From positions 66,976 through 130,975 of the forward strand of contig JAJYFR010000001.1 in NCBI GenBank assembly GCA_021785355.1: 64,000 bases of DNA, written 5' to 3'. The stretch is from a bacterium. Lineage in GTDB: Bacteria; Patescibacteriota; Dojkabacteria; JAKAPS01; JAJZLI01. The notes under the pieces are model-generated. The model was not told the origin of the DNA. It saw nothing but the letters and a program-made list of their open reading frames with translations, and did not search any database. The number at the start of each line of letters is the position of its first letter. Within the stretch, counting starts at the first letter, position 1. This document shows, in pieces, positions 32 to 43,896 of this stretch. A program made the translations under genes and the position numbers.

Positions 32-400
32 ATGTATACTTATTTTAATAAAACAGCTTATATTCCTAAGATTTTAGTGAAATCTATGATTTCTGTAAAT
101 CCTAATATTTTAATAACAACTTTAATTGATTTTATGTTTGTTTTAGTGGGTTTTATTTTTTTTATAACTGTATTAATCTCTGGGGTTGAGTGGATGGTAT
201 CTGGTTCTGATAGTAAAAAAAATGAAAATGCTAAAAAAAGATTAATAAACTCAATAATAGGTATATTTATTATTGGAGGATCTTATTTAATCTTAGAAGT
301 TTTAGGAGGTATATTAGGGTTTAATAATTTTTTTAATAAAACTCTGTTTACGAATAAATGCAATAATACTACATATCAGAATCATATATGTCTAGGTTAA
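32..400 (+). CDS. VirB2/TrbC-like T4SS pilin family small membrane protein (paralog 1, no cleavable signal peptide)
   Basis: 122 aa with two hydrophobic helices flanking a charged loop (GVEWMVSGSDSKKNENAKKRLINSIIGIFIIGGSYLILEVLGG), strongly paralogous to the next ORF. C-terminal tail carries two Cys. An in-frame TGA lies upstream at 17-19, so the ORF starts inside the window. Confidence 0.4.
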   Translation: MYTYFNKTAYIPKILVKSMISVNPNILITTLIDFMFVLVGFIFFITVLISGVEWMVSGSDSKKNENAKKRLINSIIGIFIIGGSYLILEVLGGILGFNNFFNKTLFTNKCNNTTYQNHICLG

Positions 401-471: not shown

Positions 472-927
472 ATGAAAAGAATTAAAAATAAAATATTAAG
501 TTTAATTTTAACTTTATCAGCTCTAATCTCAGCAACATTAGTTCCTGTGTTTGCAGCTACTAGTTATGTTCCTGCATCTATATCAGGTTCTACTCTATCT
601 ACAAATCCAAATGGAATAATATCTACAATTATTAATTTTCTTTTTATAATAGTAGGTTTAATATTCTTTGTTATTCTTGTTATTGCAGGAATACAGTGGG
701 TAACAGCAGGTGGAGAAGAGAAAGGAAAAGAGGAAGCTCAAAAAAGAATTATTAATGCAATCATAGGAGTTGCTATTGTAGCAGGATCTTACTTGATAGT
801 AGAAATAGTATCAGGATTATTAGGAATAGGTGGAATATTTGGAAATAATCTATTTACTCATAATTGTGGTACTACTACAAATTCTTCTGGATCAAGTGTT
901 TGTCTTAATGGTACATTAGGAAATTAA
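472..927 (+). CDS. VirB2/TrbC-like T4SS pilin family small membrane protein (paralog 2, N-terminal signal peptide)
   Basis: 151 aa. Signal-peptide-like N-terminus (MKRIKNKILSLILTLSALISATLVPVFAAT), then the same two-helix core as ORF 32..400 (IAGIQWVTAGGEEKGKEEAQKRIINAIIGVAIVAGSYLIVEIVSG) and a C-terminal Cys pair. Confidence 0.4.
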   Translation: MKRIKNKILSLILTLSALISATLVPVFAATSYVPASISGSTLSTNPNGIISTIINFLFIIVGLIFFVILVIAGIQWVTAGGEEKGKEEAQKRIINAIIGVAIVAGSYLIVEIVSGLLGIGGIFGNNLFTHNCGTTTNSSGSSVCLNGTLGN

Positions 928-976: not shown

Positions 977-1387
977 TTATTTTACTGAAATACTCTTAGG
1001 TTTTGATTGTTCTGATTTTGGAAGAATAAGAGTAAGTACTCCATTTTTATATTCAGCTTGAGATTTATCATTTTCTACTCTTGATGGTAGAGTAATAGAT
1101 CTTGCTATGCTTTGATGTTTAATCTCTTTTCTGTAATATTTTTTTCCTTTATCTTCATTTTCTTCTTTAGCTTCCGCTTTTATAGTTAAAGTATCTCCTT
1201 CTACAGTTAGGGAGAAGTCTTCCTTTTCAAAACCTGGAGCTTTCATTTTCACTACAACATTGTCTTTTTCTTCATAAATATCTAATGATCCTGTTCCTGT
1301 TTGAAAAAAATTATCCAAATCAAAATCATCGTCATCAAAAAATTTAGGAAAGACTATGTTATAAGGATTCCATCTTGTTATTGCCAT
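977..1387 (-). CDS. Hsp20/alpha-crystallin family small heat-shock protein
   Basis: 136 aa. Alpha-crystallin domain features (KAPGFEKEDFSLTVEGDTLTIKAE ... GVLTLILPK). Good SD aggaggtg upstream on minus strand. Confidence 0.8.
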   Translation of the reverse strand: MAITRWNPYNIVFPKFFDDDDFDLDNFFQTGTGSLDIYEEKDNVVVKMKAPGFEKEDFSLTVEGDTLTIKAEAKEENEDKGKKYYRKEIKHQSIARSITLPSRVENDKSQAEYKNGVLTLILPKSEQSKPKSISVK

Positions 1388-6568: not shown

Positions 6569-7657
6569 ATGAAATTAGATGTAAAAATAAAGACATATAT
6601 ACCTAAGAATAATGAAAAAGATTCATTTTCTCATGTATATATGCATGATCCACAAGAAGAAAGTCTTCTTGAAACAAGAGGAAAACTATTTTCAGCTATA
6701 GATGTAAGGACTAAGAATAGAGATGTAGATATAGAATCTTTAGTAAATGAGTTTCTAGATAATATAGAGTTAGAATATTTTAGTAATGATGTCTCTAGTA
6801 TTATAAATATTCTTGATAAATCAGTAAATATAGCTTATTCAAAATTATCACAAAAGATTATAGATATGGAATTGAGTGGGAATATAGATTTTAATGTAGG
6901 TTGTTTTGTAATTTGGGGTGATATTGCTTATATGGCAAGAATAGGGGAAACAAAGATTTATCTTTTTAGAGACGGTAAGTTTATGAATTTATCAGATCAT
7001 TTATTAGCAGTTGGAAAGAGTATTGTCTCTACAGCTAGTGGATATGCTAAAAATAAAGATATTTTTTTTATGTCCACATCTTTGATTAAAAACTATTTAG
7101 ATGAGAAAAAAATAAAAGATATTTGTAATTCATCTCAAGAAGAAATTTCACAAATGGAATTAGGGAATAAGAATATATCATTTATTGTAATGCAAATAGA
7201 AACAACAGAGGAAGATATAAAAGATGAAGAATTAGAAAAAGATGAAGAGGTAGTAGTTGAATTAAATGATTCTTCTGATAATATAGAGAGTGAAGAACAT
7301 ATAGATAATATTCAGAAAAGATCTCTTAATGATTTTGATTTAAAAAATAAAGCGAAAAAAATGACCTCTTATATTATAAATTCAACAAAAAATACTTCTT
7401 CTAATATATACAAAAATATAAATACTAATGTAAAGAAAGTGGATTGGAAATCTTTAATGAAATCTATTTTAACTGTTATATTAACTTTTTTTGAATGGAT
7501 ATTTTATTCACTAGTATACCTAAAAGATAGATCCCAAAAACAATATAAATTAAAAATTAATAGAGATATAGAGATTTTAAAAAAAGAGAAAAAAACAGTT
7601 ATTGGTATAGTAATATTTCTTATATTATTTATACTAATATATAATTTTTTTTTTTAA
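6569..7657 (+). CDS. Hypothetical membrane-anchored protein with PP2C-phosphatase-like core (possibly degenerate), acidic linker and C-terminal TM
   Basis: 362 aa. NVGCFVIWGDIAYMARIGETKIYLFRDGKFMNLSDH resembles the PP2C motif (VANVGDSRAYL.RDG...LT.DH) with D-to-E change. DE-rich linker. C-terminal hydrophobic helix. Confidence 0.3.
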   Translation: MKLDVKIKTYIPKNNEKDSFSHVYMHDPQEESLLETRGKLFSAIDVRTKNRDVDIESLVNEFLDNIELEYFSNDVSSIINILDKSVNIAYSKLSQKIIDMELSGNIDFNVGCFVIWGDIAYMARIGETKIYLFRDGKFMNLSDHLLAVGKSIVSTASGYAKNKDIFFMSTSLIKNYLDEKKIKDICNSSQEEISQMELGNKNISFIVMQIETTEEDIKDEELEKDEEVVVELNDSSDNIESEEHIDNIQKRSLNDFDLKNKAKKMTSYIINSTKNTSSNIYKNINTNVKKVDWKSLMKSILTVILTFFEWIFYSLVYLKDRSQKQYKLKINRDIEILKKEKKTVIGIVIFLILFILIYNFFF

Positions 7658-7799: not shown

Positions 7800-8711
7800 T
7801 TGATTAATAAATTAAAAGATAATTCTTCTAGTAAATCTTACCTTAATGAATTGAACAATATATATTATTCTTTAAATGATGTAATTCCTATAAATAATTA
7901 TACAATCCTGTCAGACATAGGGATTTCTTATCCTGGAGCTGAAATTAGTTCTTTACAAAACTTATCTGGAAATATATATCTAACTGATCCTAAACTGCAA
8001 TATGTATATTCAATATCAGATACTACTCAATCAACTCCAACTCAGTTTGAGAGATTGTCTTCAGGTATATCCATTCCTCAATCAATTACATATTCATTGT
8101 CAAAGAATTCCTTATTTTTATATGACACAGATAGAGGTCTTTTTAGTGTAGCACTAAATGGAACTTTATCTCCAATAATAGGTCCTGTACCAAATTCAAA
8201 TATATCAAGTATTCAATCATATATGGGGAACATCTATATGTTAGATAGCTCTAAAGGTATAATATATAATGTAAACACAACAACTCTTTCATATACTAAT
8301 GGATTAAAATCCAAATATTTAGTAGGTGCAAGGTCGTTTGCTGTAGATGGAAATATTTTTGTTATAGATAAATCTGGTAATATTGTACGTTTTTATGCAA
8401 ATACATATACTCCATTTGCAATTTCTAATTCTCAAGCTATGGAATATTCTTTGAATAAGAGTTCATATATTTATGATAATCAGTACTCTAATTATATATA
8501 TATTGTAGATCCAGCTCATTACAGAATAGTAGTTTTACAAAAACCTGCAGCAGGTTCAGTAAATACAACGGATTATAAATTTGTAAAGCAGTATGTATAT
8601 ACAGGAAGTAATAAAAGCTTATTTTCAAATATAACAGATTTATCGATATCAGCATCTGGAAAGAGTTTTTATTTATTATCTGGAACTAAAATAATTAAAA
8701 TATTTATATGA
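7800..8711 (+). CDS. Hypothetical protein with repeated beta-propeller-like (NHL/YVTN-type) blades
   Basis: 303 aa. Repeats GNIYLTDPK, GNIYMLDSSKGIIYNV, DGNIFVIDKSGNIVRF, NYIYIVDPAHYRIVVL. The only start available is TTG at 7800: frame open from 7638, no ATG/GTG, no SD. Start uncertain. Confidence 0.3.
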   Translation: MINKLKDNSSSKSYLNELNNIYYSLNDVIPINNYTILSDIGISYPGAEISSLQNLSGNIYLTDPKLQYVYSISDTTQSTPTQFERLSSGISIPQSITYSLSKNSLFLYDTDRGLFSVALNGTLSPIIGPVPNSNISSIQSYMGNIYMLDSSKGIIYNVNTTTLSYTNGLKSKYLVGARSFAVDGNIFVIDKSGNIVRFYANTYTPFAISNSQAMEYSLNKSSYIYDNQYSNYIYIVDPAHYRIVVLQKPAAGSVNTTDYKFVKQYVYTGSNKSLFSNITDLSISASGKSFYLLSGTKIIKIFI

Positions 8712-9163
8712 AATTAATAGTATCTAATAAAAAGGTCTCCCATAACTATGAGATTATACAAAAATATATATCAGGTATAATACTTTATGGTTATGAAGTA
8801 AAATCTGTGAAATCAGGAAGTATAAGTTTGTCAGAATCATTTATTACTCTAAGAGAGGAAGAATTATTCATTTTACATATGTATATTGCTCCAATAGCAG
8901 AGATAAAGAATATGGAAAGATATAATTCTTTGAGAGAAAGAAAACTTTTATTAAATAAAAATGAAATAAATGAAATAGGGAAGTATTTAAAGCAATCAGG
9001 GTATACAATAGTACCTCTTTCTGTTTTTTTGAAAAATGGGTTAATAAAATTAAATATTGCTGTAGTTAAAGGTTTAAAGCAGTATGATAAACGAGAAAAA
9101 GAGAAGAAAAGATCTCATGAAATGGATATAGAAAGATCTCAGAATATAAAATATAAATTATAG
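8708..9163 (+). CDS. smpB: SsrA-binding protein SmpB
   Basis: 151 aa. Typical SmpB layout (N-terminal KKVSHNYEI...GYEVKS, C-terminal basic tail KREKEKKRSHEMDIER). Confidence 0.85.
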   Translation: MKLIVSNKKVSHNYEIIQKYISGIILYGYEVKSVKSGSISLSESFITLREEELFILHMYIAPIAEIKNMERYNSLRERKLLLNKNEINEIGKYLKQSGYTIVPLSVFLKNGLIKLNIAVVKGLKQYDKREKEKKRSHEMDIERSQNIKYKL

Positions 9164-9202: not shown

Positions 9203-9460
9203 ATGAGTCCAATTGAAAGAATAGAAAATAAACCTAATATAGATGAAAGCTTAATAAATGCTGGATCTACGATTGATACTGGTATAAAAATAGATTCTTC
9301 TTTGAATGAGGGTGTTACAGTAGAAGCAGGTAGTCCAGTGGAATTGGCAAGAAAAAAAGCTGATGATTATGCAAGAGAGAATTCATTAAGTGGAAATAAA
9401 GAGAAAGGTTATAATACAACTTCTTCTTGGAGAGGATTAAGAGCAGTTATTTCAAAATAA
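9203..9460 (+). CDS. Hypothetical small protein
   Basis: 85 aa ORF with no recognisable motif. Sits between smpB and the conjugation-type ATPase. Confidence 0.2.
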   Translation: MSPIERIENKPNIDESLINAGSTIDTGIKIDSSLNEGVTVEAGSPVELARKKADDYARENSLSGNKEKGYNTTSSWRGLRAVISK

Positions 9461-9515: not shown

Positions 9516-11948
9516 ATGGTTTCTCATTTAGTTATTAACACAAATTATATCCATACTCTATATTCTAATATGATTAGTGTCATTACAATAGTTTTTATTG
9601 TACTGGTTATTTTACTTATAATAGTAGTAATTTTTCTTATAACAGCATTTTTTCTTCTAAGAGATATTAAAATTTCTAATTTTATTAAAAATAGCAAGAA
9701 ATTAGTAACTTTTGAAGTAACACTTCCTATGGATAATGAAGTAGAGATTGCTGCAGCTGAACAAATGTATTTAGCATTATCAGGTATTAAAGGGGGGAAG
9801 AAATTTGAAAGATTAGTAGGAAAATTTGACTATATAACATTTGAAATATTAGCAACTTCAGAATTAATAAATTTCTATGTAACTTGTAGTGAAAAAATGT
9901 CTGATTTTATTGAAAAACAGATACATTCAAGTTATCAAACAGCTGAAGTTGTTAAAATTGAACATCCTGATATTTTTGAGAAAGATGCTTATGTTGAATA
10001 TGCATCCTTAGTTTTTTCAAAAGAATCATATTATCCTATAAAAACTTATGGAGAAGAAGTAAAGGTTGATACAATATCTAACATAACTAGTGTTATAAGT
10101 AAGTTATCAAAAGATGAATATGCTTCTTTTCAATTAGTTATATACCCTTCAACTGGTAAATGGATTAAGAATGGGAATAATCATACTAAACCAAAGAGTG
10201 TGAAAAAAGATGAGGCTCCAAAACCTGAGAGTAATTCTAAGCAATATCAGAATCAAAAGATAGATGACAAGACAAAAAACCCTGGATTTGTTTCTACAAT
10301 AAGACTTTTAGCTGTAAGTGAAAATGAAGAAAAAGCTAAAGCATTACTTAATAATATGGTTTCAAGTTTTTCTCAATTTACTGAGATAGGTGGAAATAAA
10401 TTTAAAAAAGCTAAATTAAGGTTCTTTAATAAAAAAGATTTTCAATTGGGTTATTTGTTTAATTTCCCATCTTTGTATGAAGAATACAAATCTACATCAA
10501 CAATACTTAATACTACAGAATTAGCAACTATTTTTCATTTTCCAAATAAGGATGTACAAACCCCTCATATACATAGATTAAATGCCAAGAGAGCACCTGT
10601 TTCGGCTGATATTCCATATGAAGGTCTATTCTTAGGTAATGGTATTTATAGAGGGCATACTAGACCTGTATATATAGGAGATGATGATAGAAGAAGACAT
10701 ATGTATATGGTAGGTAGAACTGGTACAGGAAAATCAACATTTTTAGAATCTTTAGCTTTACAGGATATACAAAATGGAAAAGGTGTTGCATTTCTTGATC
10801 CTCATGGTCAGTCTGCCGAAAATATTATTGCAAGAATACCTCCTGAGAGAGCAGGTGATGTGATTTATTTTAATGCAGGAGATTATGATAGACCTATGGG
10901 AATAAACATAATGGAGTATTATTCTGAGGAAGATAAGCACATGATTGTAAATTCTTTTTACCATATGCTTGAAAAGCTTTTTGATCCAAATAGAACAGGA
11001 ATTACAGGTCCTAGATTAGAAAGAGCTGTTAGAAATTGTATGTTAACTGCTATGTCAAAACCAGGTAGTACACTCATAGAAGTATTCAGATTAGTTTTAT
11101 TAGATCAAAAATTCATAGATGAAGTATTACCTTATGTAAAAGATGATTTAGTTAGAAAATATTGGACAGAAGAGATAGCAAATACTTCTGATTATCATAA
11201 ATCAGAAACATTAGGTTATTTTGCATCAAAATTTGATAGATTTGTTGTTAATAAGATGATGCGAAATATTTTAGGTCAGAGTAAATCATCCTTTAATTTA
11301 AGAGAAATAATGGATAATCAGAAGATATTAATTGTAAATCTTGATAAAGGTAAGATAGGAGAAGAAAATTCTCAGTTTTTAGGTTTATTATTAGTGCCAA
11401 AAATACTTTCTGCTGCAATGTCTAGATCAAATATTCCAGAAGATCAGAGAAAAGATTTTTACTTATATGTTGATGAATTTCAGAATTTTGCAACAGAAGA
11501 TTTTGCTCAAATTTTATCTGAGTCAAGAAAATATAGACTTAATTTAATTGTAGCAAATCAATATATAAATCAAATGATAGATGAAGTTAAGAATGCTATA
11601 TTTGGAAATGTTGGTTCTTTAGTAAGTTTTAAAGTGGGTGTTTCTGATGCTGAATTTCTAGAGAAAGAATTTGAACCAATTTTTAATCAACAAGATCTAA
11701 TTAATTTAGAGAATAGATATGCTTATGTTAAAATTATATCTAAAGGAGAAGCTCAGCCTCCTTTTTCTATGCAGACCGTAATGAGTTCTGCGAAGCCAGA
11801 TAATGAAATAGCTGAGTCTATAAAGCATTTATCTAGAATAAAATATGGAAGAGATATTAATGAAATAGAGGATGAAATTAAATCTAGAGGTCTTTTAGAT
11901 AATACTCTAAATCCATCTGCTCTTGAAGATATATTGAAGCAGAAGTAA
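9516..11948 (+). CDS. Membrane-anchored FtsK/HerA-superfamily conjugation-type ATPase (VirD4/TraG/TraD coupling-protein-like, possibly VirB4-like)
   Basis: 810 aa. N-terminal hydrophobic segment. Walker A MVGRTGTGKST followed by VAFLDPHGQS (the DPxG box typical of TrwB/VirD4-type proteins). Walker B YLYVDEF and SRKYRLNLIVANQ. About 340 aa between the TM and the NTPase domain. Confidence 0.55.
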   Translation: MVSHLVINTNYIHTLYSNMISVITIVFIVLVILLIIVVIFLITAFFLLRDIKISNFIKNSKKLVTFEVTLPMDNEVEIAAAEQMYLALSGIKGGKKFERLVGKFDYITFEILATSELINFYVTCSEKMSDFIEKQIHSSYQTAEVVKIEHPDIFEKDAYVEYASLVFSKESYYPIKTYGEEVKVDTISNITSVISKLSKDEYASFQLVIYPSTGKWIKNGNNHTKPKSVKKDEAPKPESNSKQYQNQKIDDKTKNPGFVSTIRLLAVSENEEKAKALLNNMVSSFSQFTEIGGNKFKKAKLRFFNKKDFQLGYLFNFPSLYEEYKSTSTILNTTELATIFHFPNKDVQTPHIHRLNAKRAPVSADIPYEGLFLGNGIYRGHTRPVYIGDDDRRRHMYMVGRTGTGKSTFLESLALQDIQNGKGVAFLDPHGQSAENIIARIPPERAGDVIYFNAGDYDRPMGINIMEYYSEEDKHMIVNSFYHMLEKLFDPNRTGITGPRLERAVRNCMLTAMSKPGSTLIEVFRLVLLDQKFIDEVLPYVKDDLVRKYWTEEIANTSDYHKSETLGYFASKFDRFVVNKMMRNILGQSKSSFNLREIMDNQKILIVNLDKGKIGEENSQFLGLLLVPKILSAAMSRSNIPEDQRKDFYLYVDEFQNFATEDFAQILSESRKYRLNLIVANQYINQMIDEVKNAIFGNVGSLVSFKVGVSDAEFLEKEFEPIFNQQDLINLENRYAYVKIISKGEAQPPFSMQTVMSSAKPDNEIAESIKHLSRIKYGRDINEIEDEIKSRGLLDNTLNPSALEDILKQK

Positions 11949-12004: not shown

Positions 12005-12078
12005 GGGCACATAGCTCAGTTGGTTAGAGCACCGTTCTTATAAAGCGGGGGTCGATGGTTCAAATCCATCTGTGCCCA
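12005..12078 (+). tRNA. tRNA-Ile (anticodon UAU, reads AUA)
   Basis: Cloverleaf: acceptor gggcaca/tgtgccc, D-arm agctcagttggttagagc (Ile-like), anticodon stem ccgtt/agcgg, loop cTTATAa, T-arm gatggttcaaatccatc. No encoded CCA. Confidence 0.8.
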
Positions 12079-12084
12079 ATTTAA

Positions 12085-12945
12085 TTATAAAATAGGTAAA
12101 TTGGGTAATCTTTCTGTATCAATTTTTATTTTTCCTAGATATTTTTCTGTAGTAGCAATTCTTTTGTGTCCTATTATTTTTGATAATGCATATATATTAG
12201 TTCCTCTAGATAAATGATGTGCTATAAAAGTATTTCTTAAATCATTAACTTTTGCATTTTCAATTCCAGCTTTTCTAAACATTCCATCTATAGAAGTTCT
12301 TATATTTCTAACTAATAAAGGATTTCCATTTTTAGTTATAAATAAATTATCTGTTTTAGCATTTTTAGGTCTTATACTTATATACTGTCTTATTACATCT
12401 AATGATTGGTCATTTAGAGGTACTTCTCTAGAAGGTGTAGTTCCATATTCTATTATATGAATATATTTTTCCTCACCTGTCATGTGAAGATCTGTTGTTT
12501 TTATTCTACATAATTCTCCTATTCTAATACCTGTTTGTAAAAGTATTTCGATTATAAGAGCTGTTCTTGTATCATTTTTTGCTGTATCTCTTAAAGCTTT
12601 AAATTCTACTTCTGTAAGAATTCTAGGTATAACGTTTTTTATCTTAGGATGAGCAATTAAGATTGCGGGGTTCTTATCTACAATATTTAGAGTTTGAAGA
12701 TATTTAAAAAAAGTTCTAGTACTATTAATCTTTCTAGAAACAGTTTTTGCTGATAAATTTTGTTTTTTTAATTCATCAAAATATTTAACGAGTATATCCT
12801 CTGTTACATCTGCAGGATTTTTTATATTTGAGAGTTTAATATATTCATCTAATTGCTCTAAATCCTTTTTATAAGCTATAATAGTATGTATGGATTTTTT
12901 GTCTTTATCCAATTCTTCTGTAAAATTTTTTATGTACTGATCCAT
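12085..12945 (-). CDS. Tyrosine site-specific recombinase (XerC/XerD-family or integrase)
   Basis: 286 aa. N-terminal SAM-like core-binding domain. Catalytic boxes (GIRIGEL with R; HxxR region; IGHKRIATTEKYLG with C-terminal Tyr). Stop only 7 nt from the tRNA-Ile(UAU) 3' end. Confidence 0.8.
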   Translation of the reverse strand: MDQYIKNFTEELDKDKKSIHTIIAYKKDLEQLDEYIKLSNIKNPADVTEDILVKYFDELKKQNLSAKTVSRKINSTRTFFKYLQTLNIVDKNPAILIAHPKIKNVIPRILTEVEFKALRDTAKNDTRTALIIEILLQTGIRIGELCRIKTTDLHMTGEEKYIHIIEYGTTPSREVPLNDQSLDVIRQYISIRPKNAKTDNLFITKNGNPLLVRNIRTSIDGMFRKAGIENAKVNDLRNTFIAHHLSRGTNIYALSKIIGHKRIATTEKYLGKIKIDTERLPNLPIL

Positions 12946-13025: not shown

Positions 13026-13424
13026 ATGCCTAGAAGAAGAAAAAATTTTAATAGAACAGGAAATTTGAGTAAATATTTTTTCTCAATAATATTATTATTT
13101 TTTATATCCCTCCTTTCATTCAATTTGGTAAGGACTTATGGAAGATATGTTTCTATAAAATCCCAAATTAACAAGATATCTTCTTTAGTAAATAATCAAA
13201 AAAAACAAAATAATACATTAAAAAAAGAATATGCTTACTATAGTAGTAATTATTATAAAAATAATATAGCAACAAATGACTTAAATTTATATAAGAAAAA
13301 TTCTTCAGAGATAGTTTTGCCAAAAAATCCTCCATCTAGTTATATAAATTTACCATCTCAGAGTAAAAGCAAAAAAACGACCCAAAAAACTTCTTTAATA
13401 GAATGGATTAATCTCTTATTTTAA
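13026..13424 (+). CDS. Hypothetical bitopic membrane protein, FtsB/DivIC-like (TM plus coiled coil)
   Basis: 132 aa. Basic N-terminus, one TM (FFSIILLFFISLLSF), then a heptad-like segment. Weak resemblance only. Confidence 0.25.
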   Translation: MPRRRKNFNRTGNLSKYFFSIILLFFISLLSFNLVRTYGRYVSIKSQINKISSLVNNQKKQNNTLKKEYAYYSSNYYKNNIATNDLNLYKKNSSEIVLPKNPPSSYINLPSQSKSKKTTQKTSLIEWINLLF

Positions 13425-13611: not shown

Positions 13612-13686
13612 CGTGGGGTGGAGCAGTGGTAGCTCATCAGGCTCATAACCTGAAGGTCGTTGGTTCGAATCCAACCCCCGCAACCA
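13612..13686 (+). tRNA. Initiator tRNA-fMet (CAU), CCA encoded
   Basis: Near-identical to E. coli tRNA-fMet. C1:A72 mismatch, three G-C pairs in the anticodon stem (ggctCATaacc), ends gcaaCCA. Confidence 0.85.
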
Positions 13687-13709
13687 AATTGATTCTGAAT
13701 TTAACTTTT

Positions 13710-13782
13710 GGCGACGTAGCTCAGTCGGTAGAGCAAAGGACTCATAAGCCTTAGGTCACAGGTTCGATTCCTGTCGTCGCTA
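13710..13782 (+). tRNA. Elongator tRNA-Met (CAU)
   Basis: ggcgacgtagctcagtcggtagagc ... loop ctCATaa ... T-arm acaggttcgattcctgt. Resembles E. coli tRNA-Met elongator. Could formally be a lysidine-type tRNA-Ile2, though a tRNA-Ile(UAU) already exists at 12005. Confidence 0.75.
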
Positions 13783-13808
13783 TATACTTAATATGATATA
13801 ATTTATAT

Positions 13809-15638
13809 ATGAATAACAAAAAAAAATTTTCACTAAATAAACCAAAAAAAAATAACACATTTGTATGGATTTTTTTTATATTTGTAGTTGTTTTTTTTCT
13901 GATATATCTTTTTATTCCAACACTAAATAATGGAAAATCTGTTCCTATAAGTACTTTAATTGTTGATTTAAAGTCTAATAAAATAAAACAATTAACCATA
14001 TATCAAACATATGCTACAGCTACTTTAAAAAATGGAACATTAATTAACTCTAATCTAGGTAGTCCTACTAATCCTACAAGTATTTTTACTAGTAATGGAG
14101 TTAATTTAAGTAAGTATAATAATATTACAATTGCACAGAATCCGACTTTAAGTGCAAGTGATATCATAACCTTAATCTTTATACTAGTTATTGTATTAAC
14201 TACTTGGTATACAGTAAGGCAATTCAAGTCAGCAGGTAATGGAGGAGGCATTTTTTCCATGGGAGAGAGTAAAGCTAAACTATTTATAGGTTCAAAGCAA
14301 TCTATTAAATTTGATGGTATAGCAGGTTTAGTTGAAGCTAAAGAAGAAGTATTTGAAATTGTAGATTTTTTGAAAAATCCTAAGAAATATTCAGATTTGG
14401 GGGCAAGAATTCCCAAAGGAGTATTATTAGTTGGTCCTCCAGGGACAGGGAAAACTTTGTTAGCAAAAGCTATTGCAGGAGAAAGTGGTGTATCTTTTTT
14501 TTCTACTTCAGGTTCTGAGTTTGAGGAGATGTTGGTAGGTGCTGGTGCATCTAGGGTAAGAGATCTTTTTTCAAAAGCAAGAAAATCTTCTCCTTCTATT
14601 ATTTTCATAGATGAAATTGATGCTGTTGCAAGAAAAAGAGGTTATTCTATTGCAGGAGCTCATACAGAACAAACCTTAAATCAAATATTGGTAGAAATGG
14701 ATGGTTTCGATACTTCAACAAATGTTATTGTTATAGCTGCTACTAATAGACCAGATGTTTTAGATCCTGCTCTATTAAGACCTGGTAGATTTGATAGGAC
14801 TATTATGTTGAGTTTGCCTGATTTAGAAGAGAGAAAAAGTATACTAAGACTTCATTCTAAGAATAAACCAATGGGTAAAGATTTAGATTTTGATAAAATA
14901 GCTAAAAGAACAATAGGTTTCTCTGGAGCTGATCTAGAAAATGTTTTAAATGAAGCCGCTATATTAACTGCTAAAAAAGAACTAAAAACTATTACAGAAG
15001 TTGAAATTGAAGAAGCTGCAACAAAAGTTGTTATGGGTCCTGCAAAAAAGACATCTAGAACAGAAGATGAAAAGAAAATAGTTTCTTATCATGAAGCTGG
15101 ACATGCTCTGGTTTCGAAATTTCTACCAGAATCAGATCCTGTACATAGAATTTCTATAGTTCCAAGAGGTATGTCAGGTGGAGCAACAATGTATCTTCCT
15201 ACACAAGATAATTATTTATATACAAAAACTAAATTTCAAACAATGATTACTCATATGTTTGGTGGAAGAGCAGCTGAGAAAATAATTTTTGATGATATTA
15301 CCAATGGTGCTTCAGATGATATAAAAAAAGCTAGTGAAATGGCTAGACGTATGGTTACTGAATTCGGAATGAGTGATTTGATAGGTCCTATTGAGTTTGG
15401 GAATGACGAAGAAGCTGGTTATTATGGAAATGTAGAGAAAAACTATAGTGAAGAAACTTCATCCATTATAGATAAAGAGGTCTCTAAAATATTAAATTCT
15501 TCATACAAGAAAGCTTTAGATATATTATCAAAGCATAAAAATATATTAGATGCTATTGCTTCAAAACTTATTGAAGAAGAAGTATTAGAAGGAGAAGATT
15601 TTAACAAAATAGTAGATTCAATGCTTAATGTCGGATAA
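13809..15638 (+). CDS. ftsH: ATP-dependent zinc metalloprotease FtsH
   Basis: 609 aa. Two TMs. AAA motif GVLLVGPPGTGKT. Zinc site HEAGHAL. Confidence 0.9.
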   Translation: MNNKKKFSLNKPKKNNTFVWIFFIFVVVFFLIYLFIPTLNNGKSVPISTLIVDLKSNKIKQLTIYQTYATATLKNGTLINSNLGSPTNPTSIFTSNGVNLSKYNNITIAQNPTLSASDIITLIFILVIVLTTWYTVRQFKSAGNGGGIFSMGESKAKLFIGSKQSIKFDGIAGLVEAKEEVFEIVDFLKNPKKYSDLGARIPKGVLLVGPPGTGKTLLAKAIAGESGVSFFSTSGSEFEEMLVGAGASRVRDLFSKARKSSPSIIFIDEIDAVARKRGYSIAGAHTEQTLNQILVEMDGFDTSTNVIVIAATNRPDVLDPALLRPGRFDRTIMLSLPDLEERKSILRLHSKNKPMGKDLDFDKIAKRTIGFSGADLENVLNEAAILTAKKELKTITEVEIEEAATKVVMGPAKKTSRTEDEKKIVSYHEAGHALVSKFLPESDPVHRISIVPRGMSGGATMYLPTQDNYLYTKTKFQTMITHMFGGRAAEKIIFDDITNGASDDIKKASEMARRMVTEFGMSDLIGPIEFGNDEEAGYYGNVEKNYSEETSSIIDKEVSKILNSSYKKALDILSKHKNILDAIASKLIEEEVLEGEDFNKIVDSMLNVG

Positions 15639-18282
15639 TAAAAAATTTTTTATTATAGATTCTCATGCACTGATATATCGTGCTTATCATGCTGTACCTC
15701 AACTTACGTCTAAAAATAGAAATGTTAATGCTGTATATGGGTTCTTTTCAATATTACTTAGATTAATAGATAAATATGAACCAGCTTATATAGTATGTGC
15801 TTTTGATTCTCCAACAAGTACTTTTATTAAAAAAAAGAAATTTACATGGTATAAAGCTAATAGAGAAAAAGTCCCTGATGAATTAATTGAACAATTTGAG
15901 TATGTAAAAGAAATATTAAGAGCTTTTAATATTAGTATAATAGAATCTTTAGATTATGAGGCAGATGATGTTGTTTCTTCTATAGCTAAAAAATTTAAAA
16001 AAGATTTTGATATCTTTGTTATTACAGGTGATAAAGATTTACTACAACTTGTAGATGATAAGGTATCTTTAATAATGCCAGGGAAATCTTTTTCTGATCC
16101 TAAAGAAATAAATAATTCAAATGTAGAAGAAATTCTAGGTTTTAAGAATAAATATCTTTTAACTTTTAAAAGTTTAAAAGGTGATCCTTCTGATAATATA
16201 CCTGGAGTACCTGGTATAGGAGATAAAACAGCTCAAGATTTAATTCTTCTTTATGGAGATCTTTTTGGTATATATGAAAATATAGATAATGTTAAAGAAT
16301 CATTAAAGCAAAAACTTATAAAAGGAAAGCAGTCAGCATATGATTCTTTTGAAGCTGCAAAATTATTTTATGATATTGATGTTAATCTTGATGTTAGTAA
16401 AATAAAAATAGCATTTGATTATGATAAGATTGTTGAAAAATTGAATGAATATGATTTTAATAGTCTAAAAAATAAATATTTTTCTAAATATAAGATAGAG
16501 GAGAATTCGGGAGTAGAATATAAAGCTCCTAAAGAAATTAATGATGATAATATAAAAACAATATCTAAGGATTTAGAGGAATTAAAAATAGTATATTTTT
16601 ATATACTCAATAATCATACTAATAACTCTATATACAGCATCTTTTTTCTTGTTAAAGATACTATTTATTATATAGATGATTTTAAGAAAGATTCTAATAT
16701 AAAGATTTTAAAAGATATTTTTTCTGATATTAATATAGAAAAAGTTTCTTTTCAGAGTAAAGATGATATGCACTCTCTAAACAACATAGGTATACCTTTT
16801 GAGGGTAAGTATTTTGATATAAATCTAGGTTATTTTATTCTAAAAGGTAAAAATACAACAATTAAATCTATTATTTATGAAATTTTTTCAGTAGAAATTG
16901 AAGATATATCTCTATTAACAATGAATGGTAAGTTTAGTTTAGATGATATAGATAAAGAAAAGTTATTAAAAAACTCTTTTTATTATATATATTATCTTCC
17001 TCTTTTGTATGAAAATATTGTACATAATCTTGAAAAAGATGATTTAAATAATTCTGTATTTAGGAATATTGATTTACCTTTAATTAAAGTACTTTTTGAC
17101 ATAGAAAAGACAGGGATAGAAATAGATGTTGAATATTTAAAAAATCTTTATAAAGAAATTAATGAAAAGATACTTTTGTTAGAGAACAAGATTTTCAAAT
17201 CTGTAGGTAAAGATTTTAATATATCTTCATCTTTACAATTAAGTAATGTGTTATATGAAGACTTAAAATTACCTTACTTTAAAAAATTAAAAAGTGGTAT
17301 ATTTCCTACAGATGATATAACACTGGAAGGTTTGTCTAAAAGAAATCCAGTAGTTGATGATATTCGTAAATACAAAGAATTAAAAAAACTTAATAGTACA
17401 TATACATTAAGTTTAGTTAAATTTGTAGATGATAAATTAAGAATACATACTACATATAACATAACAGGTGTAAGTACAGGTAGATTATCATCAAAGAATC
17501 CTAATTTACAAAATCTTCCAAATAAAACAGAATTAGGTAGAGATATAAGAAAGGCTTTTATTCCTAGTAAAAATCATATATTTATATCTTTTGATTATTC
17601 TCAGATAGAACTGAGGTTGATGGCTTTCTTTTCTCAAGATGAAAATATGAAAAAAGCATTTAATGAAGGTTTAGATATACATACATATACAGCTTCTCAG
17701 ATTTTTAATAAATTAGAAAAGGATATTACTAAAGATGAAAGAAACAAAGCTAAGACAATTAATTTTGGAGTAATATATGGCATATCTTCATATGGTTTAT
17801 CTCAACAGTTAGGTATTACAAGGAAAGAAGCTAATGATTTTATAGAGAATTATTTTAAAAGATTTTCTTCAATAAAAAATTATTACAAATATATAGAAAC
17901 TTTTGTTGAAAAAAATGCATTTGTAGAAACTTTGTTTGGAAGAAAAAGACATTTTGATACTACTTCTGGAAGTTATATAGTTAAGAGTCACATATTTAGG
18001 GAAGCTATCAATATGCCAATTCAAGGTACTTGTGCTGATATAATAAAAATATCTATGAATAAAATTTTCAATAATAATGAATATTTGAAATATAAAGCCA
18101 AAATATTAATGCAGATCCATGATGAATTAGTGTTTGAAGTGCCAAAGAATGTTGATAAAGAGGCATTTATAAAATTAATTAGTTCTTTAATGACAGATTT
18201 TAAGGAAATCGATATTCCTTTGAGGGTAGATTCTAAATATGGAGATAATTTAAGAGATTTAGTTGTATATGAAAATAAATAA
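15628..18282 (+). CDS. polA: DNA polymerase I
   Basis: 884 aa. N-terminal 5'-3' exonuclease domain. Polymerase motifs DYSQIELR (A), RNKAKTINFGVIYG (B), QIHDELVFE (C). Confidence 0.9.
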   Translation: MSDNKKFFIIDSHALIYRAYHAVPQLTSKNRNVNAVYGFFSILLRLIDKYEPAYIVCAFDSPTSTFIKKKKFTWYKANREKVPDELIEQFEYVKEILRAFNISIIESLDYEADDVVSSIAKKFKKDFDIFVITGDKDLLQLVDDKVSLIMPGKSFSDPKEINNSNVEEILGFKNKYLLTFKSLKGDPSDNIPGVPGIGDKTAQDLILLYGDLFGIYENIDNVKESLKQKLIKGKQSAYDSFEAAKLFYDIDVNLDVSKIKIAFDYDKIVEKLNEYDFNSLKNKYFSKYKIEENSGVEYKAPKEINDDNIKTISKDLEELKIVYFYILNNHTNNSIYSIFFLVKDTIYYIDDFKKDSNIKILKDIFSDINIEKVSFQSKDDMHSLNNIGIPFEGKYFDINLGYFILKGKNTTIKSIIYEIFSVEIEDISLLTMNGKFSLDDIDKEKLLKNSFYYIYYLPLLYENIVHNLEKDDLNNSVFRNIDLPLIKVLFDIEKTGIEIDVEYLKNLYKEINEKILLLENKIFKSVGKDFNISSSLQLSNVLYEDLKLPYFKKLKSGIFPTDDITLEGLSKRNPVVDDIRKYKELKKLNSTYTLSLVKFVDDKLRIHTTYNITGVSTGRLSSKNPNLQNLPNKTELGRDIRKAFIPSKNHIFISFDYSQIELRLMAFFSQDENMKKAFNEGLDIHTYTASQIFNKLEKDITKDERNKAKTINFGVIYGISSYGLSQQLGITRKEANDFIENYFKRFSSIKNYYKYIETFVEKNAFVETLFGRKRHFDTTSGSYIVKSHIFREAINMPIQGTCADIIKISMNKIFNNNEYLKYKAKILMQIHDELVFEVPKNVDKEAFIKLISSLMTDFKEIDIPLRVDSKYGDNLRDLVVYENK

Positions 18283-20014
18283 ATACAGTTTTGATTCACT
18301 TTGTGAACATTTAATTTTATTAGAAAAAATTTCATCTAGAAATCAAATTACAGAGGTTATATCAAACCTATTAAAAGAGATACCTCAAGAGTATGTGGAG
18401 GAATTTATGTATTTGATAAATGGTAGGGTAGCTCCATTTTATGTGAAATCTGATTTTAATATAGGAGATAAAATGATAACAGATGTTCTTAGTGAAGTTC
18501 TTTTACTAGATAATGCTCAGGTAGTATCATATCTAAATGAATATGGAGATTTAGGTACTGTTTTTTATAATAACAAAAAAGGAGATATTCAAAACTATGA
18601 ATTCATAGATATATTTAATTTTTTAAAAGAGATTTCCTTAATTGAGGGGAAAGATTCAAATAAAATAAAGCGAGATCGACTTATTGAAATGTTAAAAACA
18701 TTATCTCCTAATTCTGGAAAATACCTAATTAGAATAGTCTTAGGGAAACTAAGGTTAGGGTTTAGTAATAAAACTTTATTAGATGCAATATCATACTCAA
18801 TAAAAGGTGATAAATCTTTAAGGAAACCTTTAGAATCTGCATATTCTAGATGTTCAGATATTGGAATAGTAGCAAAATATGCTTTTTTAGATATAAATTC
18901 TTTAAATGATTTTTCAATAAAGATAGGTATCCCTATATTTCCAAAATTAGTAGAACGTTCATCATCTATAAATGATGGTATTAAAAGATTTAAAGAAGTT
19001 TATGCCCAACCTAAATTTGATGGATTAAGGTGTCAGATCCATATATTAGATTCAGGAGAAATAAAACTATTCTCAAGAAATCTTAATGATATAACTGATT
19101 TATTTCCTCAATTTATAGAAAGCTTTCAAAAACTAAATGTTAAAAATGCTATTTTTGATTCAGAAATAATAGGAATAAATCTTATTACAAATAAATTTTT
19201 ATTGTTTCAAGATACGGTTAAAATGAAGAGAAAGAACAATCTAATAGTAGATGATAACAATGAGATGAAAGCTTTTATATTTGATGTAATATATCTTAAT
19301 TCCAAATCTTTTTTAAATGAACCTTTCAAAAATAGAATTATGGTTTTATCAGGTCTTTTTTCTGATAATAATTATAAAAATATAGAATTAACAGAAACGA
19401 AAATTTTTTCTAAAGAAGAAGATGTCTACGATTATTTTGAAGAAAATATTAATAAAGGTTTGGAAGGTGTAGTCCTTAAGAATCCCAATAGTTTATATAC
19501 TCCAGGCACACGTAATTTTGATTGGCTAAAACTGAAAAGAGATTCTTTGAAAGATGTTGTTGATACAATTGATGCTGTAATAATGGGGTATTACAAAGGT
19601 AGTGGTAGTAGAGCAAAGTTAGGGATAGGTGGGGTTTTAGTAGGTATATATAATTCTAATAAAAATAAATTTGAAACTATATGTAAATTAGGAAGTGGTT
19701 TTTCAGAAGAAGAACTGGTAGATTTAAAAGCATCTTTAGATTTAAATATCATTAATAATCCAGATAAATTCTATGTTTTCAATAAAGATATCACTCCAGA
19801 TGTATGGGTGGATCCTAAGATAGTAGTAGTTATAAGATCTGATGAAATAACAAAAAGTCCTATACATACATCAGGTATGGATCAGGATAAAGATAAGAAA
19901 GGTTTTGCTTTAAGATTTCCTAGATTTATAAGTTTTAGAGTCGATAAAGGGGCTTATGATTCAACAAGTGTCTCTGAGGTGGAATCTATGTATAAAATTG
20001 AAAAAAATATATGA
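18263..20014 (+). CDS. ATP-dependent DNA ligase
   Basis: 583 aa. Motif I KFDGLR, motif IV EGVVLK, motif V DAVIMGY, motif VI FPRFISFRVDK. Start overlaps the polA end (alternative ATG at 18269). Confidence 0.8.
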   Translation: MYMKINKYSFDSLCEHLILLEKISSRNQITEVISNLLKEIPQEYVEEFMYLINGRVAPFYVKSDFNIGDKMITDVLSEVLLLDNAQVVSYLNEYGDLGTVFYNNKKGDIQNYEFIDIFNFLKEISLIEGKDSNKIKRDRLIEMLKTLSPNSGKYLIRIVLGKLRLGFSNKTLLDAISYSIKGDKSLRKPLESAYSRCSDIGIVAKYAFLDINSLNDFSIKIGIPIFPKLVERSSSINDGIKRFKEVYAQPKFDGLRCQIHILDSGEIKLFSRNLNDITDLFPQFIESFQKLNVKNAIFDSEIIGINLITNKFLLFQDTVKMKRKNNLIVDDNNEMKAFIFDVIYLNSKSFLNEPFKNRIMVLSGLFSDNNYKNIELTETKIFSKEEDVYDYFEENINKGLEGVVLKNPNSLYTPGTRNFDWLKLKRDSLKDVVDTIDAVIMGYYKGSGSRAKLGIGGVLVGIYNSNKNKFETICKLGSGFSEEELVDLKASLDLNIINNPDKFYVFNKDITPDVWVDPKIVVVIRSDEITKSPIHTSGMDQDKDKKGFALRFPRFISFRVDKGAYDSTSVSEVESMYKIEKNI

Positions 20015-23546: not shown

Positions 23547-26658
<3,112 letters not shown>

Positions 26659-27975: not shown

Positions 27976-28017
27976 TATAAAGATTTCATATTTTAAGTAT
28001 ATGATATAATATATATT

Positions 28018-33216: not shown

Positions 33217-34236
33217 TTAAAAATTCTTTATATTTTTTTGTAGTGTATCTATGAACTTTAGAGCCTCTGATGCACCATACGCAACTGTATCCATAGGATT
33301 ATCACTTATATATACTGGTATGCCAATAGCCCTTGATATTAAAGTATCTATGTTTCTTAGTAAAGAAGTACCTCCGCTTATTAGAATGCCTCTATCCATT
33401 ATATCTGAAGATAATTCTGGAGGAGTTTTTTCCAATACATGCCTTGAAGTCTGTATTATTAAATTTAAGGGATTTTTTATTGCATCTACAATCATATTGC
33501 TATCTATACTTATAGATTTAGGCATTCCTGTTATTACATCTCTTCCTTTTATATTCATAGATAATGGGGAAGTCAGAGGTAGTGCCGATCCAATCTCAAG
33601 TTTAATTTTTTCTGCCATTTGATCTCCAATTAAAACACCTCTGTTTTTCTTTAAAAAATTTATAATAGATTCATTTATATATTCTCCACCAACTCTAATA
33701 GAATCGGATACAACTATTCCATTAAGAGATATTACTGCAAATTCAGCAGTTCCACCACCTATATTGATAACCATATTCCCAGAAGATGTTCCAATAGGAA
33801 GATTTGCACCTATTGCAGTTAATAATGCTTCAGGCATAAGGTATATTTTTTTTGCTCCGGAATTTAGTATAGATTCATATATTGCTCTTTTTTCTACGGA
33901 TGTTAACCCTGAAGATATACTTGCAATAACTTGAGATCCTGTTAAAAATCTTGTTTTAGACACTTTAGAAAAAAAATATTTTATCATTAACTCAGATATT
34001 TTATAATTGGAAATAGCTCCTCCTATTAAAGGTTTTCTCGATATAATACCTTCAGGAGTCCTTCCTAACATTTCTTTAGCTTCGTGTCCAATAGCTATTA
34101 TTGTTTTATCTTCTATTGATATTGCTATTACAGAAGGTTCGTTCAATATTATTCCTTTATTTAGAGATGATATTAGGGAATTTGATGTGCCAAAATCCAG
34201 TCCGAATTTATTTGTGTTAAACATTTTATAATACAA
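33217..34236 (-). CDS. Divergent MreB-family actin-like protein (second paralog)
   Basis: 339 aa. FGLDFGTSNSLI...NEPSVIAI and GRTPEGIISRKPLIGGAISNY parallel the MreB phosphate-1 and GRTP...P.KDGVI.D motifs. C-terminal GG.S motif ILISGGTSL. Confidence 0.7.
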   Translation of the reverse strand: MYYKMFNTNKFGLDFGTSNSLISSLNKGIILNEPSVIAISIEDKTIIAIGHEAKEMLGRTPEGIISRKPLIGGAISNYKISELMIKYFFSKVSKTRFLTGSQVIASISSGLTSVEKRAIYESILNSGAKKIYLMPEALLTAIGANLPIGTSSGNMVINIGGGTAEFAVISLNGIVVSDSIRVGGEYINESIINFLKKNRGVLIGDQMAEKIKLEIGSALPLTSPLSMNIKGRDVITGMPKSISIDSNMIVDAIKNPLNLIIQTSRHVLEKTPPELSSDIMDRGILISGGTSLLRNIDTLISRAIGIPVYISDNPMDTVAYGASEALKFIDTLQKNIKNF

Positions 34237-42837: not shown

Positions 42838-43896
42838 ATGGCATTTTCTGATTTTTTTTGGAACATATTCACTTTTGATATAGGTATAGACCTTGGGACG
42901 GCTAATACTTTAGTTCTTGTTAAAAATCAGGGAATCATTATTAATGAGCCTTCGGTTGTTGCATTAAATACAAGAACTAATGAAATTTTATCTGTAGGGA
43001 AAGATGCTCAAAAGATGTTAGGTAGAACTCCTGCTTCTATTACAGCAATAAGACCTTTAAAAGATGGAGTAATATCAGATTTTGATGCAACTAGAGAAAT
43101 GATACACTATTTTATAGAAAAAGTTCATGATAATTCTTCAAAATTTTTTAAAATAGCAAGACCTAGGATAGTAATAGGTATACCTTCTTCTATAACAGAA
43201 GTCGAGAGAAAAGCTGTAATTGATGCAGCTATATCTGCTGGAGCTAGAAGTGTTTATTTGATAGAAGAACCTATGGCAGCTGCTATTGGCGCTGGACTTC
43301 CTGTGTCAGAAGCACTGGGTTCTTTTATTGTAGATATAGGGGGAGGAACAACAGATATAGCTGTTATTTCTTTGGGTGGTATAGTAATAGATAAATCTAT
43401 TAGGGTTGCAGGAGATGAATTAACTCAAGATATAATAAATTACATTAGGAATAAATATAATTTATTAATAGGTGAAAGATCTGCAGAAGAATTAAAGATT
43501 ACTTTAGGTAATGCTTATCCTAGAAAAGAAAATAAAAAAGTGTCAATAAAAGGTAGAGATATATTCTTAGGTTTACCTAAGACAGTACTTATATCAGAGG
43601 CTGAAGTTAGAGAGGCTTTATCAAATTCATTAAATATAATCATTGATTCAGTATATGAAGCTTTAGAGGAAACTCCTCCAGAGCTTATTTCAGATATAAC
43701 AGAAAAGGGAATTTGTTTAACAGGAGGAGGATCTTTAATTCCTGGAATAAAAAAATTATTCTCAGATAAAATAAAAGTGCCTTTTTATGTTGCAGAAAAT
43801 CCATTAGAAAGTGTTGTAATAGGTACATCTATATTGTTAGATGATATAAGTATGTTAGAGAAAATTAATATATCTGATTCTCAGGATTATTTATAA
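42838..43896 (+). CDS. mreB: Rod shape-determining protein MreB
   Basis: 352 aa. DIGIDLGTANTLV...NEPSVVA, GRTPASITAIRPLKDGVISDF, DIGGGTTD, LTGGGSL. Confidence 0.9.
   Translation: MAFSDFFWNIFTFDIGIDLGTANTLVLVKNQGIIINEPSVVALNTRTNEILSVGKDAQKMLGRTPASITAIRPLKDGVISDFDATREMIHYFIEKVHDNSSKFFKIARPRIVIGIPSSITEVERKAVIDAAISAGARSVYLIEEPMAAAIGAGLPVSEALGSFIVDIGGGTTDIAVISLGGIVIDKSIRVAGDELTQDIINYIRNKYNLLIGERSAEELKITLGNAYPRKENKKVSIKGRDIFLGLPKTVLISEAEVREALSNSLNIIIDSVYEALEETPPELISDITEKGICLTGGGSLIPGIKKLFSDKIKVPFYVAENPLESVVIGTSILLDDISMLEKINISDSQDYL

Follow-up and report, generated by a model that had tools for sequence, protein, structure and literature searches.

Much of bacterial diversity belongs to the Candidate Phyla Radiation (CPR; Patescibacteria), whose ultra-small members are epibionts; their chromosomal type IV secretion system (T4SS) is one of a handful of machineries that this lifestyle has been shown to require. 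A survey of 3,035 CPR genomes reported 5,713 homologues of VirD4-type type IV coupling proteins (T4CPs), a class that is not equated here with the family described below, in 2,918 genomes, with 148 of the 5,713 located near virB4 (PMC12102498). VirB4 was found in 2,417 genomes, and CPR genomes hold a full monoderm-type T4SS elsewhere, including a separate bona fide VirB4 (PMC12102498). The T4SS of the Saccharibacteria member Southlakia epibionticum was described as lacking a recognizable coupling protein (Wang et al. 2023; PMC10633639), and the 2025 survey treats the t4cp homologue of this organism as non-essential (PMC12102498). Here, we analyzed a 64,000-nt stretch of a Dojkabacteria genome (contig JAJYFR010000001.1, positions 66,976 to 130,975; hereafter, the window), which contains a complete gene (9516..11948, +) for a T4CP-like membrane ATPase. 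This gene is an ordinary member of the catalogued but uncharacterized, CPR/Patescibacteria-wide family DUF8128 (PF26449), and its product is co-encoded with a small, fast-evolving candidate partner protein.

The open reading frame (ORF) encodes 810 aa between an ATG start and a TAA stop codon, and its AlphaFold2 (AF2) model had a predicted local distance difference test score (pLDDT) of 86.6 and a predicted template modeling score (pTM) of 0.74. The only hydrophobic segment, at approximately residues 19–48 (up to 3.8 in a 19-residue Kyte–Doolittle window), corresponds to a single N-terminal transmembrane (TM) helix (9570..9659, +), and residues 12–60 form one long helix in the AF2 model. Because the K/R-rich segment RDIKISNFIKNSKK comes right after the TM helix, the positive-inside rule predicts an N-out/C-in topology. 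The distance from this helix to the NTPase core, approximately 320–340 residues, is occupied by a folded domain, the DUF8128 N-terminal domain (NTD; residues ~61–370; 9696..10625, +), which was predicted to consist of two alpha/beta sub-domains. These are joined by a variable Lys-rich linker (residues 213–255; 10152..10280, +), where mean identity is ~20%, pLDDT drops to 64–75, and phmmer matches break into two blocks. The first half of the nucleotide-binding domain (NBD; 10626..10925, +) includes a beta-hairpin, the Walker A motif MVGRTGTGKST (residues 398–408; nt 10707–10739), and the motif VAFLDPHGQS (residues 424–433; nt 10785–10814). An all-alpha insert (residues ~471–603; 10926..11324, +) lies between Walker A and Walker B, its eight helices (residues 471–600) being flanked by strands at 449–453 and 604–608. 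The second half of the NBD (11325..11795, +), a TraG-D_C-like region, carries YLYVDEF (residues 649–655; nt 11460–11480) and SRKYRLNLIVANQ (residues 670–682; nt 11523–11561). The protein ends in C-terminal helices and a low-confidence tail (residues 761–810; 11796..11945, +), with a pLDDT below 50 at residues 795–810 and a mean identity of 40% over 761–810. The catalytic residues, including D653, E654, and Q682, were invariant across 62 homologues. The predicted order is thereby a TM helix, an NTD of VirB4-type fold, and a TrwB/TraD-type motor, in a single-pass protein facing the cytoplasm.

The motor is TrwB/TraD-like at the level of sequence. Matches above the Pfam cutoffs were obtained for TrwB_AAD_bind (23.2 bits; cutoff, 20.5) and TraG-D_C (23.9 bits; cutoff, 22; residues 649–716; E 4.3e-5). 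The best sequence matches in a profile search of the PDB were TrwB (2.7e-5) and DotL (5.6e-5), and VirB4, FtsK, and HerA gave no match at a significant E-value in that search. SXT_TraD of NCBIfam matched with an E-value of 5.7e-15, yet reached only 54.8 bits against a cutoff of 366, and the curated family scores all lay far under their cutoffs. Comparison of the family profile with TrwB by hhalign yielded 94.6% (E 6.6e-8) over 270 columns spanning the NBD and the helical insert, as against 2.4% for TrwK/VirB4 (72 columns), 16–25% for TraD, 11–21% for TraC, and 7% for PrgJ. When the ORFs of 85 loci were searched by phmmer, TrwB retrieved 79 ORFs, all inside the 85-member family cluster; PrgJ, TrwK, and TraC retrieved none of the 85 members, and all three recovered the genuine VirB4 in locus L030. 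No VirB4 family of Pfam, including CagE_TrbE_VirB, was present on the window protein or among the 240 homologues listed. These results bear out the VirD4/TrwB/TraD-type motor proposed in the original prediction from the motifs; the VirB4 alternative that it also raised holds for the NTD only, by predicted fold, and has no counterpart in the sequence. Nor did FtsK/SpoIIIE or HerA, named there as the families whose leading position would speak against a T4SS ATPase, head the profile matches, FtsK_SpoIIIE reaching an E-value of 0.037 and DUF87 falling slightly under its cutoff.

When compared with the features that characterize each ATPase group, the window protein has an NBD homologous to those of TrwB/VirD4 with Walker A and B, and an all-alpha domain located where that of TrwB is located. 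The latter feature does not discriminate among groups, because VirB4 and HerA have helical inserts too. A TM anchor directly before the NBD is absent, a folded domain of ~320 residues intervening, and so, within the 64-kb window, is genetic association with a relaxase/DNA transfer and replication (Dtr) module or a T4SS cluster. As regards VirB4, the ATPase has an N-terminal domain of this type at the level of predicted structure; it belongs to no VirB4 family by sequence and occupies no VirB3-adjacent position in a T4SS operon, its surrounding genes being housekeeping genes.

The predicted fold of the DUF8128 NTD resembles that of the VirB4 N-terminal domain, and the likeness is one of fold only. 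In the R388 system, it is through their NTDs that two VirB4 protomers pair into a dimer; these domains also insert into the membrane and touch VirB3 and VirB8 (PMC12857230). The intervening region had been regarded as an insert of approximately 340 aa of unknown function; its extent was reproduced (320–340 residues), but it is a catalogued domain, PF26449/DUF8128, for which structure prediction indicates a VirB4-NTD-like fold.

A scored set of just 8,000 candidates yielded 2,645 homologues at E ≤ 1e-3, which with few exceptions are 780–850 aa long, and a species-representative scan (one genome per species) identified at least 552 loci with the family, so that the description of the ATPase as an orphan does not hold. 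These loci cover Microgenomates, Dojkabacteria, WWE3, Saccharibacteria, Berkelbacteria, Parcubacteria, and Gracilibacteria; some taxon labels of third-party annotation (TPA) metagenome-assembled genomes among the homologues (e.g., "Gammaproteobacteria") are evidently mis-assigned. Identity was 48–58% even across Microgenomates classes and Dojkabacteria. By its labeled relatives, the window sits within CPR/Patescibacteria, closest to Dojkabacteria and Microgenomates. The PF26449/DUF8128 annotation was precomputed for the exact window protein, where it is unmarked as weak, and is carried by all 240 homologues listed. A phmmer search with residues 50–385 gave 1,445 matches among 1.84 billion cluster representatives; among the 150 matches listed, DUF8128 nearly always started within ~120 residues of the N-terminus and formed two blocks around the variable linker. 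No mention of DUF8128 was found in the literature searched. Mean identity in alignment A1, comprising Microgenomates/Dojkabacteria-type homologues, was 62–68% for the motor core, 66% for the helical insert, 42–46% for the NTD, and ~20% for the TM segment and linker; the all-alpha insert is conserved as strongly as the catalytic core. The distribution of the family is CPR-wide and looks vertical and housekeeping-like. Two members were occasionally found near each other on one contig, either adjacent (L048; 819 and 858 aa) or two ORFs apart (L070), in agreement with the survey count of about two T4CP homologues for each genome of CPR bacteria (PMC12102498).

The one constant neighbor of the ATPase gene across lineages is a small upstream ORF, which often overlaps the ATPase start by 1–11 nt. 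In the window, it encodes 85 aa (9203..9460, +) with a low-complexity body and a conserved C-terminal motif (…TSSWRGLRAVISK). The ORF is kept at the same place in loci L101 and L102, whose ATPases are 79% and 67% identical to that of the window; the small ORFs are only 24–32% identical and conserve only an "MS" start and the C-terminal motif TSSW/F-R-x-L/M-R/K. A small same-strand upstream ORF abutted the ATPase start in 60 of 80 loci, compared with 99 of 328 for other large genes of the same loci (binomial p ~2e-16, for loci that are not phylogenetically independent). The C-terminal modules are lineage-specific, namely S-x-R/K-W-L-A-x-W…K/R in Microgenomates, T-W-x(3)-L-L-D-R-L-L-K-K in Dojkabacteria, EKEWVxKAK…DPY…ADYLKKRYGK in Saccharibacteria, and DPYILDxxHDxL in Parcubacteria, and all come after a low-complexity N-terminal part. 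No Pfam family matched the small ORF above threshold, the single match being a sub-threshold one to DUF3801 (E 0.017). Identification with VirB3 was ruled out because the ORF has no TM segment, and homology to PcfB/DUF3801 was rejected, with hhalign values below 1% for the profiles of all four lineages.

Published transposon-insertion sequencing (Tn-seq) data of S. epibionticum include an apparent counterpart of this gene pair. The gene order in Table S1 of PMC10633639 is SEML1_0138 (YifB, −), small ORFs, 0141 (139 aa, +), 0142 (1019 aa, +), 0143 (−), 0144 (−), and 0145 (gyrB); its order, orientation, and sizes match those of loci L051, L056, L064, L068, L077, and L078, all of whose ATPases carry DUF8128. 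SEML1_0142 is annotated as "TraM recognition domain-containing", with a P-loop region at 381–800 and residues 71–380 unassigned (PMC10633639), and synteny, size, and domain boundaries make it the apparent counterpart of the window ATPase. It is a core, Patescibacteria-enriched gene classified as essential in epibiotic growth at each of the three time points (ES/ES/ES), with 114 insertions in the input DNA followed by 11, 11, and 9, and the upstream SEML1_0141 had 9 insertions in the input DNA and 0 at T0–T2 (GD/ES/ES) (PMC10633639). The insertion depletion of SEML1_0142 is quantitatively similar to that of essential T4SS genes, such as the virB4-like SEML1_0008, which fell from 80 input insertions to 9 (PMC10633639). 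SEML1_0142 was not discussed by Wang et al. (PMC10633639), and neither it nor the co-essential 139-aa upstream gene apparently receives discussion in the searchable literature. A second gene of the same layout, SEML1_0293 (PF10412 at 402–719), was non-essential (PMC10633639); PMC12102498 presumably refers to this gene with its "t4cp homologue… not found to be essential". The label Southlakia was absent among the best 120 Saccharibacteria homologues. Taken together, these data suggest that CPR bacteria at large have a second T4CP-like ATPase, which is highly conserved, carries a VirB4-like docking domain, and is apparently essential, with a co-essential small partner.

On balance, we lean toward reading the window protein as a coupling or energizing ATPase that uses VirB4-like contacts to dock at the inner-membrane platform of the CPR T4SS. 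The ATPase would oligomerize like other ATPases of the VirB4/VirD4/HerA clade, and its VirB4-like NTD would dock it on the inner-membrane platform of the chromosomal, relaxase-less T4SS. There it could act as the "missing" coupling or energizing ATPase of this T4SS for a non-conjugative substrate; the near absence of relaxases from CPR (PMC12102498) makes conjugative DNA an unlikely substrate. The small partner may, through its C-terminal helix, serve as an adaptor or regulator, with this helix and the conserved helical insert handling substrate or regulation. A further-reaching proposal, which we regard as possible but doubtful, is that DUF8128 proteins, as hybrids of a VirB4-type NTD and a T4CP motor, make up a third, previously unrecognized class of T4SS ATPases that is universal in CPR and essential there. 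The ATPase would be the "missing" coupling protein of the essential CPR T4SS, docked by NTD contacts in a position like that of VirB4, and would perhaps retain the ancestral architecture of VirD4. According to this proposal, canonical VirD4 coupling proteins would have arisen through loss of the VirB4-type NTD.

The genomic context of the window bears on the docking proposal. Nearly all ORFs of at least 100 aa in the window were scanned by Pfam or precomputed annotation, and all those with a match were housekeeping genes except for a pair of genes for VirB2-like pilins (32..400 and 472..927, +), which matched T4SS_pilin of Pfam with E-values of 1.7e-10 and 7.4e-10. These form the 3′ end of a four-gene array, as four pilin genes are present in L107 (802..2553). 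The array lies 8.6 kb upstream of the ATPase gene and is followed by an Hsp20 gene (977..1387, −). The T4SS cluster of S. epibionticum ends in the same way, with pilins SEML1_0014–0019 followed by 0020, an Hsp20 gene on the minus strand (PMC10633639, Table S1), and this matching layout makes it probable that the remaining core genes of the T4SS are located shortly before the window start. Pilin genes were also located 6–8.6 kb upstream of the family ATPase in L005, L009, and L036, and the window pilins possibly belong to the T4SS that the ATPase serves.

Several points weigh against the docking proposal. A physical or genetic link of the ATPase to the T4SS is putative. VirB4 occurred within 10 kb of the ATPase in only 1 of 81 related loci, the T4CP homologue is mostly far from virB4 in CPR genomes (PMC12102498), and the excess of genomes with T4CP homologues over those with VirB4 (2,918 vs 2,417) implies that some carriers may lack a T4SS. 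The VirB4 likeness of the NTD is a matter of predicted structure alone. The TM-scores against VirB4 were moderate (0.42–0.49), TrwK was the only VirB4 family among the NTD structural matches for comparison, and hhalign with single templates detected no sequence homology between the NTD and VirB4 (<1%). SEML1_0142 is a presumed counterpart by synteny, size, and domain boundaries, and SEML1_0142 and its dispensable paralogue SEML1_0293 might both be co-orthologues of the window protein. Moreover, essentiality in co-culture is silent on the role of the protein.

Some of these observations would fit a T4SS-independent essential machine. The ATPase, derived from a T4SS ATPase by exaptation and no longer working with the T4SS, would act together with its small partner as a self-contained membrane translocase or remodeling motor that moves protein, nucleic acid, or envelope components and is specific to CPR cell biology. 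We regard this as unlikely, though well within consideration. It would account for a gene that is mostly far from virB4 and more widespread than VirB4, and exaptation was raised by the authors of the survey themselves (PMC12102498). The neighbors of the ATPase gene are housekeeping genes that vary by lineage, only the small upstream ORF being constant; SEML1_0142 was already ES at T0, when most T4SS genes were GD; and the identity of the motor in A1 is very high for a secretion component. However, the VirB4-like NTD makes most sense as a module that docks onto inner-membrane parts of a T4SS, pilin arrays lie within 6–9 kb in the Dojkabacteria-like lineage, the insertion depletion of SEML1_0142 resembles that of T4SS genes, and no alternative channel partner recurs beside the gene.

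The docking proposal also differs from the function suggested in the original prediction, that of DNA uptake or export in a minimal T4SS. A minimal system is unlikely because CPR carry the full T4SS elsewhere (PMC12102498) and because the pilin array lies upstream of the ATPase. DNA uptake or export is unsupported, since relaxases number 109 in 3,035 CPR genomes (PMC12102498) and competence in Saccharibacteria is comEC-dependent, as deletion of comEC showed, and is attributed to type IV pili (PMC12857230). The T4CP-type motifs and profile matches would suit a canonical conjugative coupling protein (or VirB4) of such a system, but this identity is improbable: VirB4, VirB6, VirB8, relaxase, and origin-of-transfer (oriT)-associated genes were absent among the scanned ORFs of the 64-kb window, which agrees with the earlier remark that no VirB6, VirB8, or relaxase gene is adjacent. 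The family is, in addition, chromosomal, pan-CPR, and vertical-looking, with an NTD of 320 aa between the TM helix and the NBD, and an essential counterpart in co-culture is hard to reconcile with conjugation.

The ATPase gene is flanked by smpB (8708..9163) upstream and, 57 nt past the stop codon, by a tRNA-Ile(UAU) gene (12005..12078, +); these flanks, like the motifs and the single TM anchor, were confirmed as originally described for 9516..11948. The tRNA-Ile(UAU) is an uncommon route to decode AUA, in keeping with the extreme A+T richness of the window (~25% G+C). Farther downstream are a convergent Xer-like tyrosine recombinase gene (12085..12945, −), DivIC (13026..13424, +), two tRNA-Met(CAU) genes (13612..13783), and FtsH (13809..15638, +). 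Among 81 loci, the neighbors varied by lineage, with SpoIID…SmpB upstream in the Dojkabacteria type and gyrB-gyrA downstream in Saccharibacteria. The Xer-like recombinase was found downstream in 21 of the 81 loci, the window included, and a DivIC-like gene in 15, in Microgenomates-type loci only. This Xer/DivIC/FtsH neighborhood is lineage synteny with no family-wide link.

A membrane-anchored ATPase of the FtsK–HerA superfamily next to a convergent Xer-like recombinase, DivIC, and FtsH might be taken for an FtsK/SpoIIIE-like chromosome translocase paired with the adjacent Xer and division genes. We consider this highly improbable. The protein does not combine an alpha/beta motor plus gamma domain with a polytopic N-terminus in the manner of FtsK/SpoIIIE, and TM7x has an annotated ftsK. 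A role as an FtsK substitute was rejected: the Xer synteny is lineage-limited, the protein resembles FtsK only weakly, and a complete, canonical FtsK is essential in S. epibionticum, which has XerC too.

Still less probable is an ATPase of an anti-phage defense or DNA-processing system of the HerA/DptH/mad8 kind. The mad8 profile of PADLOC matched the motor alone (residues 372–716; E 5.4e-17), with none of the other mad genes that MADS comprises, and neither an N-terminal HAS barrel nor NurA or another nuclease partner, as expected for HerA, was present. The defense reading was rejected because only the motor matches mad8, DptH, and HerA and because, among the neighboring genes scanned against Pfam, none resembled a defense gene and no nuclease, methylase, mad, dnd, or NurA genes are nearby. 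Furthermore, a membrane anchor and a VirB4-like NTD are foreign to mad8/DptH/HerA systems, and the universal, vertical-looking occurrence of the family and the essentiality of its counterpart are the opposite of what is typical of defense genes.

Relatives of the motor were found in L086 (7950..9248), L092 (2383..3618), L098 (7971..9158), and L099 (7179..9395). Those made up of the ATPase alone (395–432 aa; ≤46% identical) were seen both on viral contigs of IMG/VR and on plasmids from Alphaproteobacteria, Actinobacteria, Firmicutes, and haloarchaea. Of the matching plasmid records, 299 of 370 were typed as non-mobilizable. A Rhodococcus relative of 738 aa has an unrelated N-terminus of ~270 aa, and a DUF5663 gene follows it. 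These relatives look like a broader uncharacterized clade of TrwB-like ATPases outside conjugation. A recent mobile-element origin of the window gene was rejected, as the relatives on viral contigs and plasmids are ATPase-only (~400–430 aa) or have unrelated N-termini, are at most 46% identical, and mostly reside on non-mobilizable plasmids; counter to this rejection, phrog_5156 matches the ATPase over its full length.

Elsewhere, the window contains housekeeping genes and an rRNA operon, and an Rfam scan detected rRNA and tRNA only. The 23S rRNA match (23547..26657, +) covers 3,111 nt compared with a 2,925-position model, approximately 190 nt extra, and the 16S–23S spacer holds tRNA-Ile(GAU) and tRNA-Ala(UGC). 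Two ORFs upstream of smpB (6569..7657 and 7800..8711, +; 362 and 303 aa) correspond to the N- and C-terminal halves of one protein, which occurs unsplit (~735–920 aa) in L003, L005, L006, L017, and L103. By eye, the unsplit protein seems to combine a PP2C-like N-terminal region with a TM segment and a C-terminal region resembling a beta-propeller. L101 and L102, both close relatives, show the split as well, which marks it as a feature of the lineage and not a sequencing error. The window also encodes two MreB paralogues (33217..34236, −; 42838..43896, +), together with MreC and PBP2; a DNA ligase of the ATP-dependent, archaeal/eukaryotic type (18263..20014, +) is encoded beside polA.

What seems new in these data is the combination of a VirB4-NTD-like DUF8128 domain with a T4CP-like motor, the conserved small partner, and the tie to a pair of genes that published Tn-seq data already mark as essential. 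The family bears on the question of the substrate and energetics of the CPR T4SS, as well as on the divergence of VirB4 and VirD4. If the ATPase works with the T4SS, it would be an obvious bait in the search for substrates and in structural studies of the CPR machine, and if the third-class proposal were true, the ATPase and its fast-evolving partner would provide a handle on the cargo that the CPR T4SS moves into or out of host bacteria. If the ATPase is not linked to the T4SS, it would be an essential CPR-specific membrane motor.

Comparison with known systems places the window ATPase beside the T4CPs, with several differences. TrwB has two TM helices. The window ATPase differs from TrwB/TraD-type T4CPs in having one, and in carrying a VirB4-like domain of ~320 aa where canonical T4CPs have no domain between the anchor and the NBD. 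Its helical insert is as conserved as the catalytic core, unlike in TrwB-type T4CPs. Whereas TrwB/TraD T4CPs are borne by plasmids or integrative and conjugative elements (ICEs), the DUF8128 ATPase is chromosomal, pan-phylum, and apparently essential, and has no relaxase or relaxosome partner. DptH (DndH), mad8, and HerA are soluble or differently anchored, patchily distributed, and accompanied by nuclease or modification partners, none of which is present here. SEML1_0142 resembles the Saccharibacteria members in the position of its P-loop region (381–800) behind an unassigned region of ~310 aa and in the 139-aa ORF directly upstream; it differs from the window ATPase in a C-terminus ~200 aa longer, a location beside gyrB/gyrA instead of smpB/xer, and an identity of 36–41% at class level. 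PcfC, a monoderm T4CP, showed no detectable similarity to the DUF8128 ATPase (hhalign, 1–3%). In the PcfB–PcfC pair of pCF10 (MPF-FATA), a small gene abuts the T4CP start (27856–28341 and 28341–30170), as the small ORF abuts that of the ATPase, and the likeness between PcfB and this ORF is positional only.

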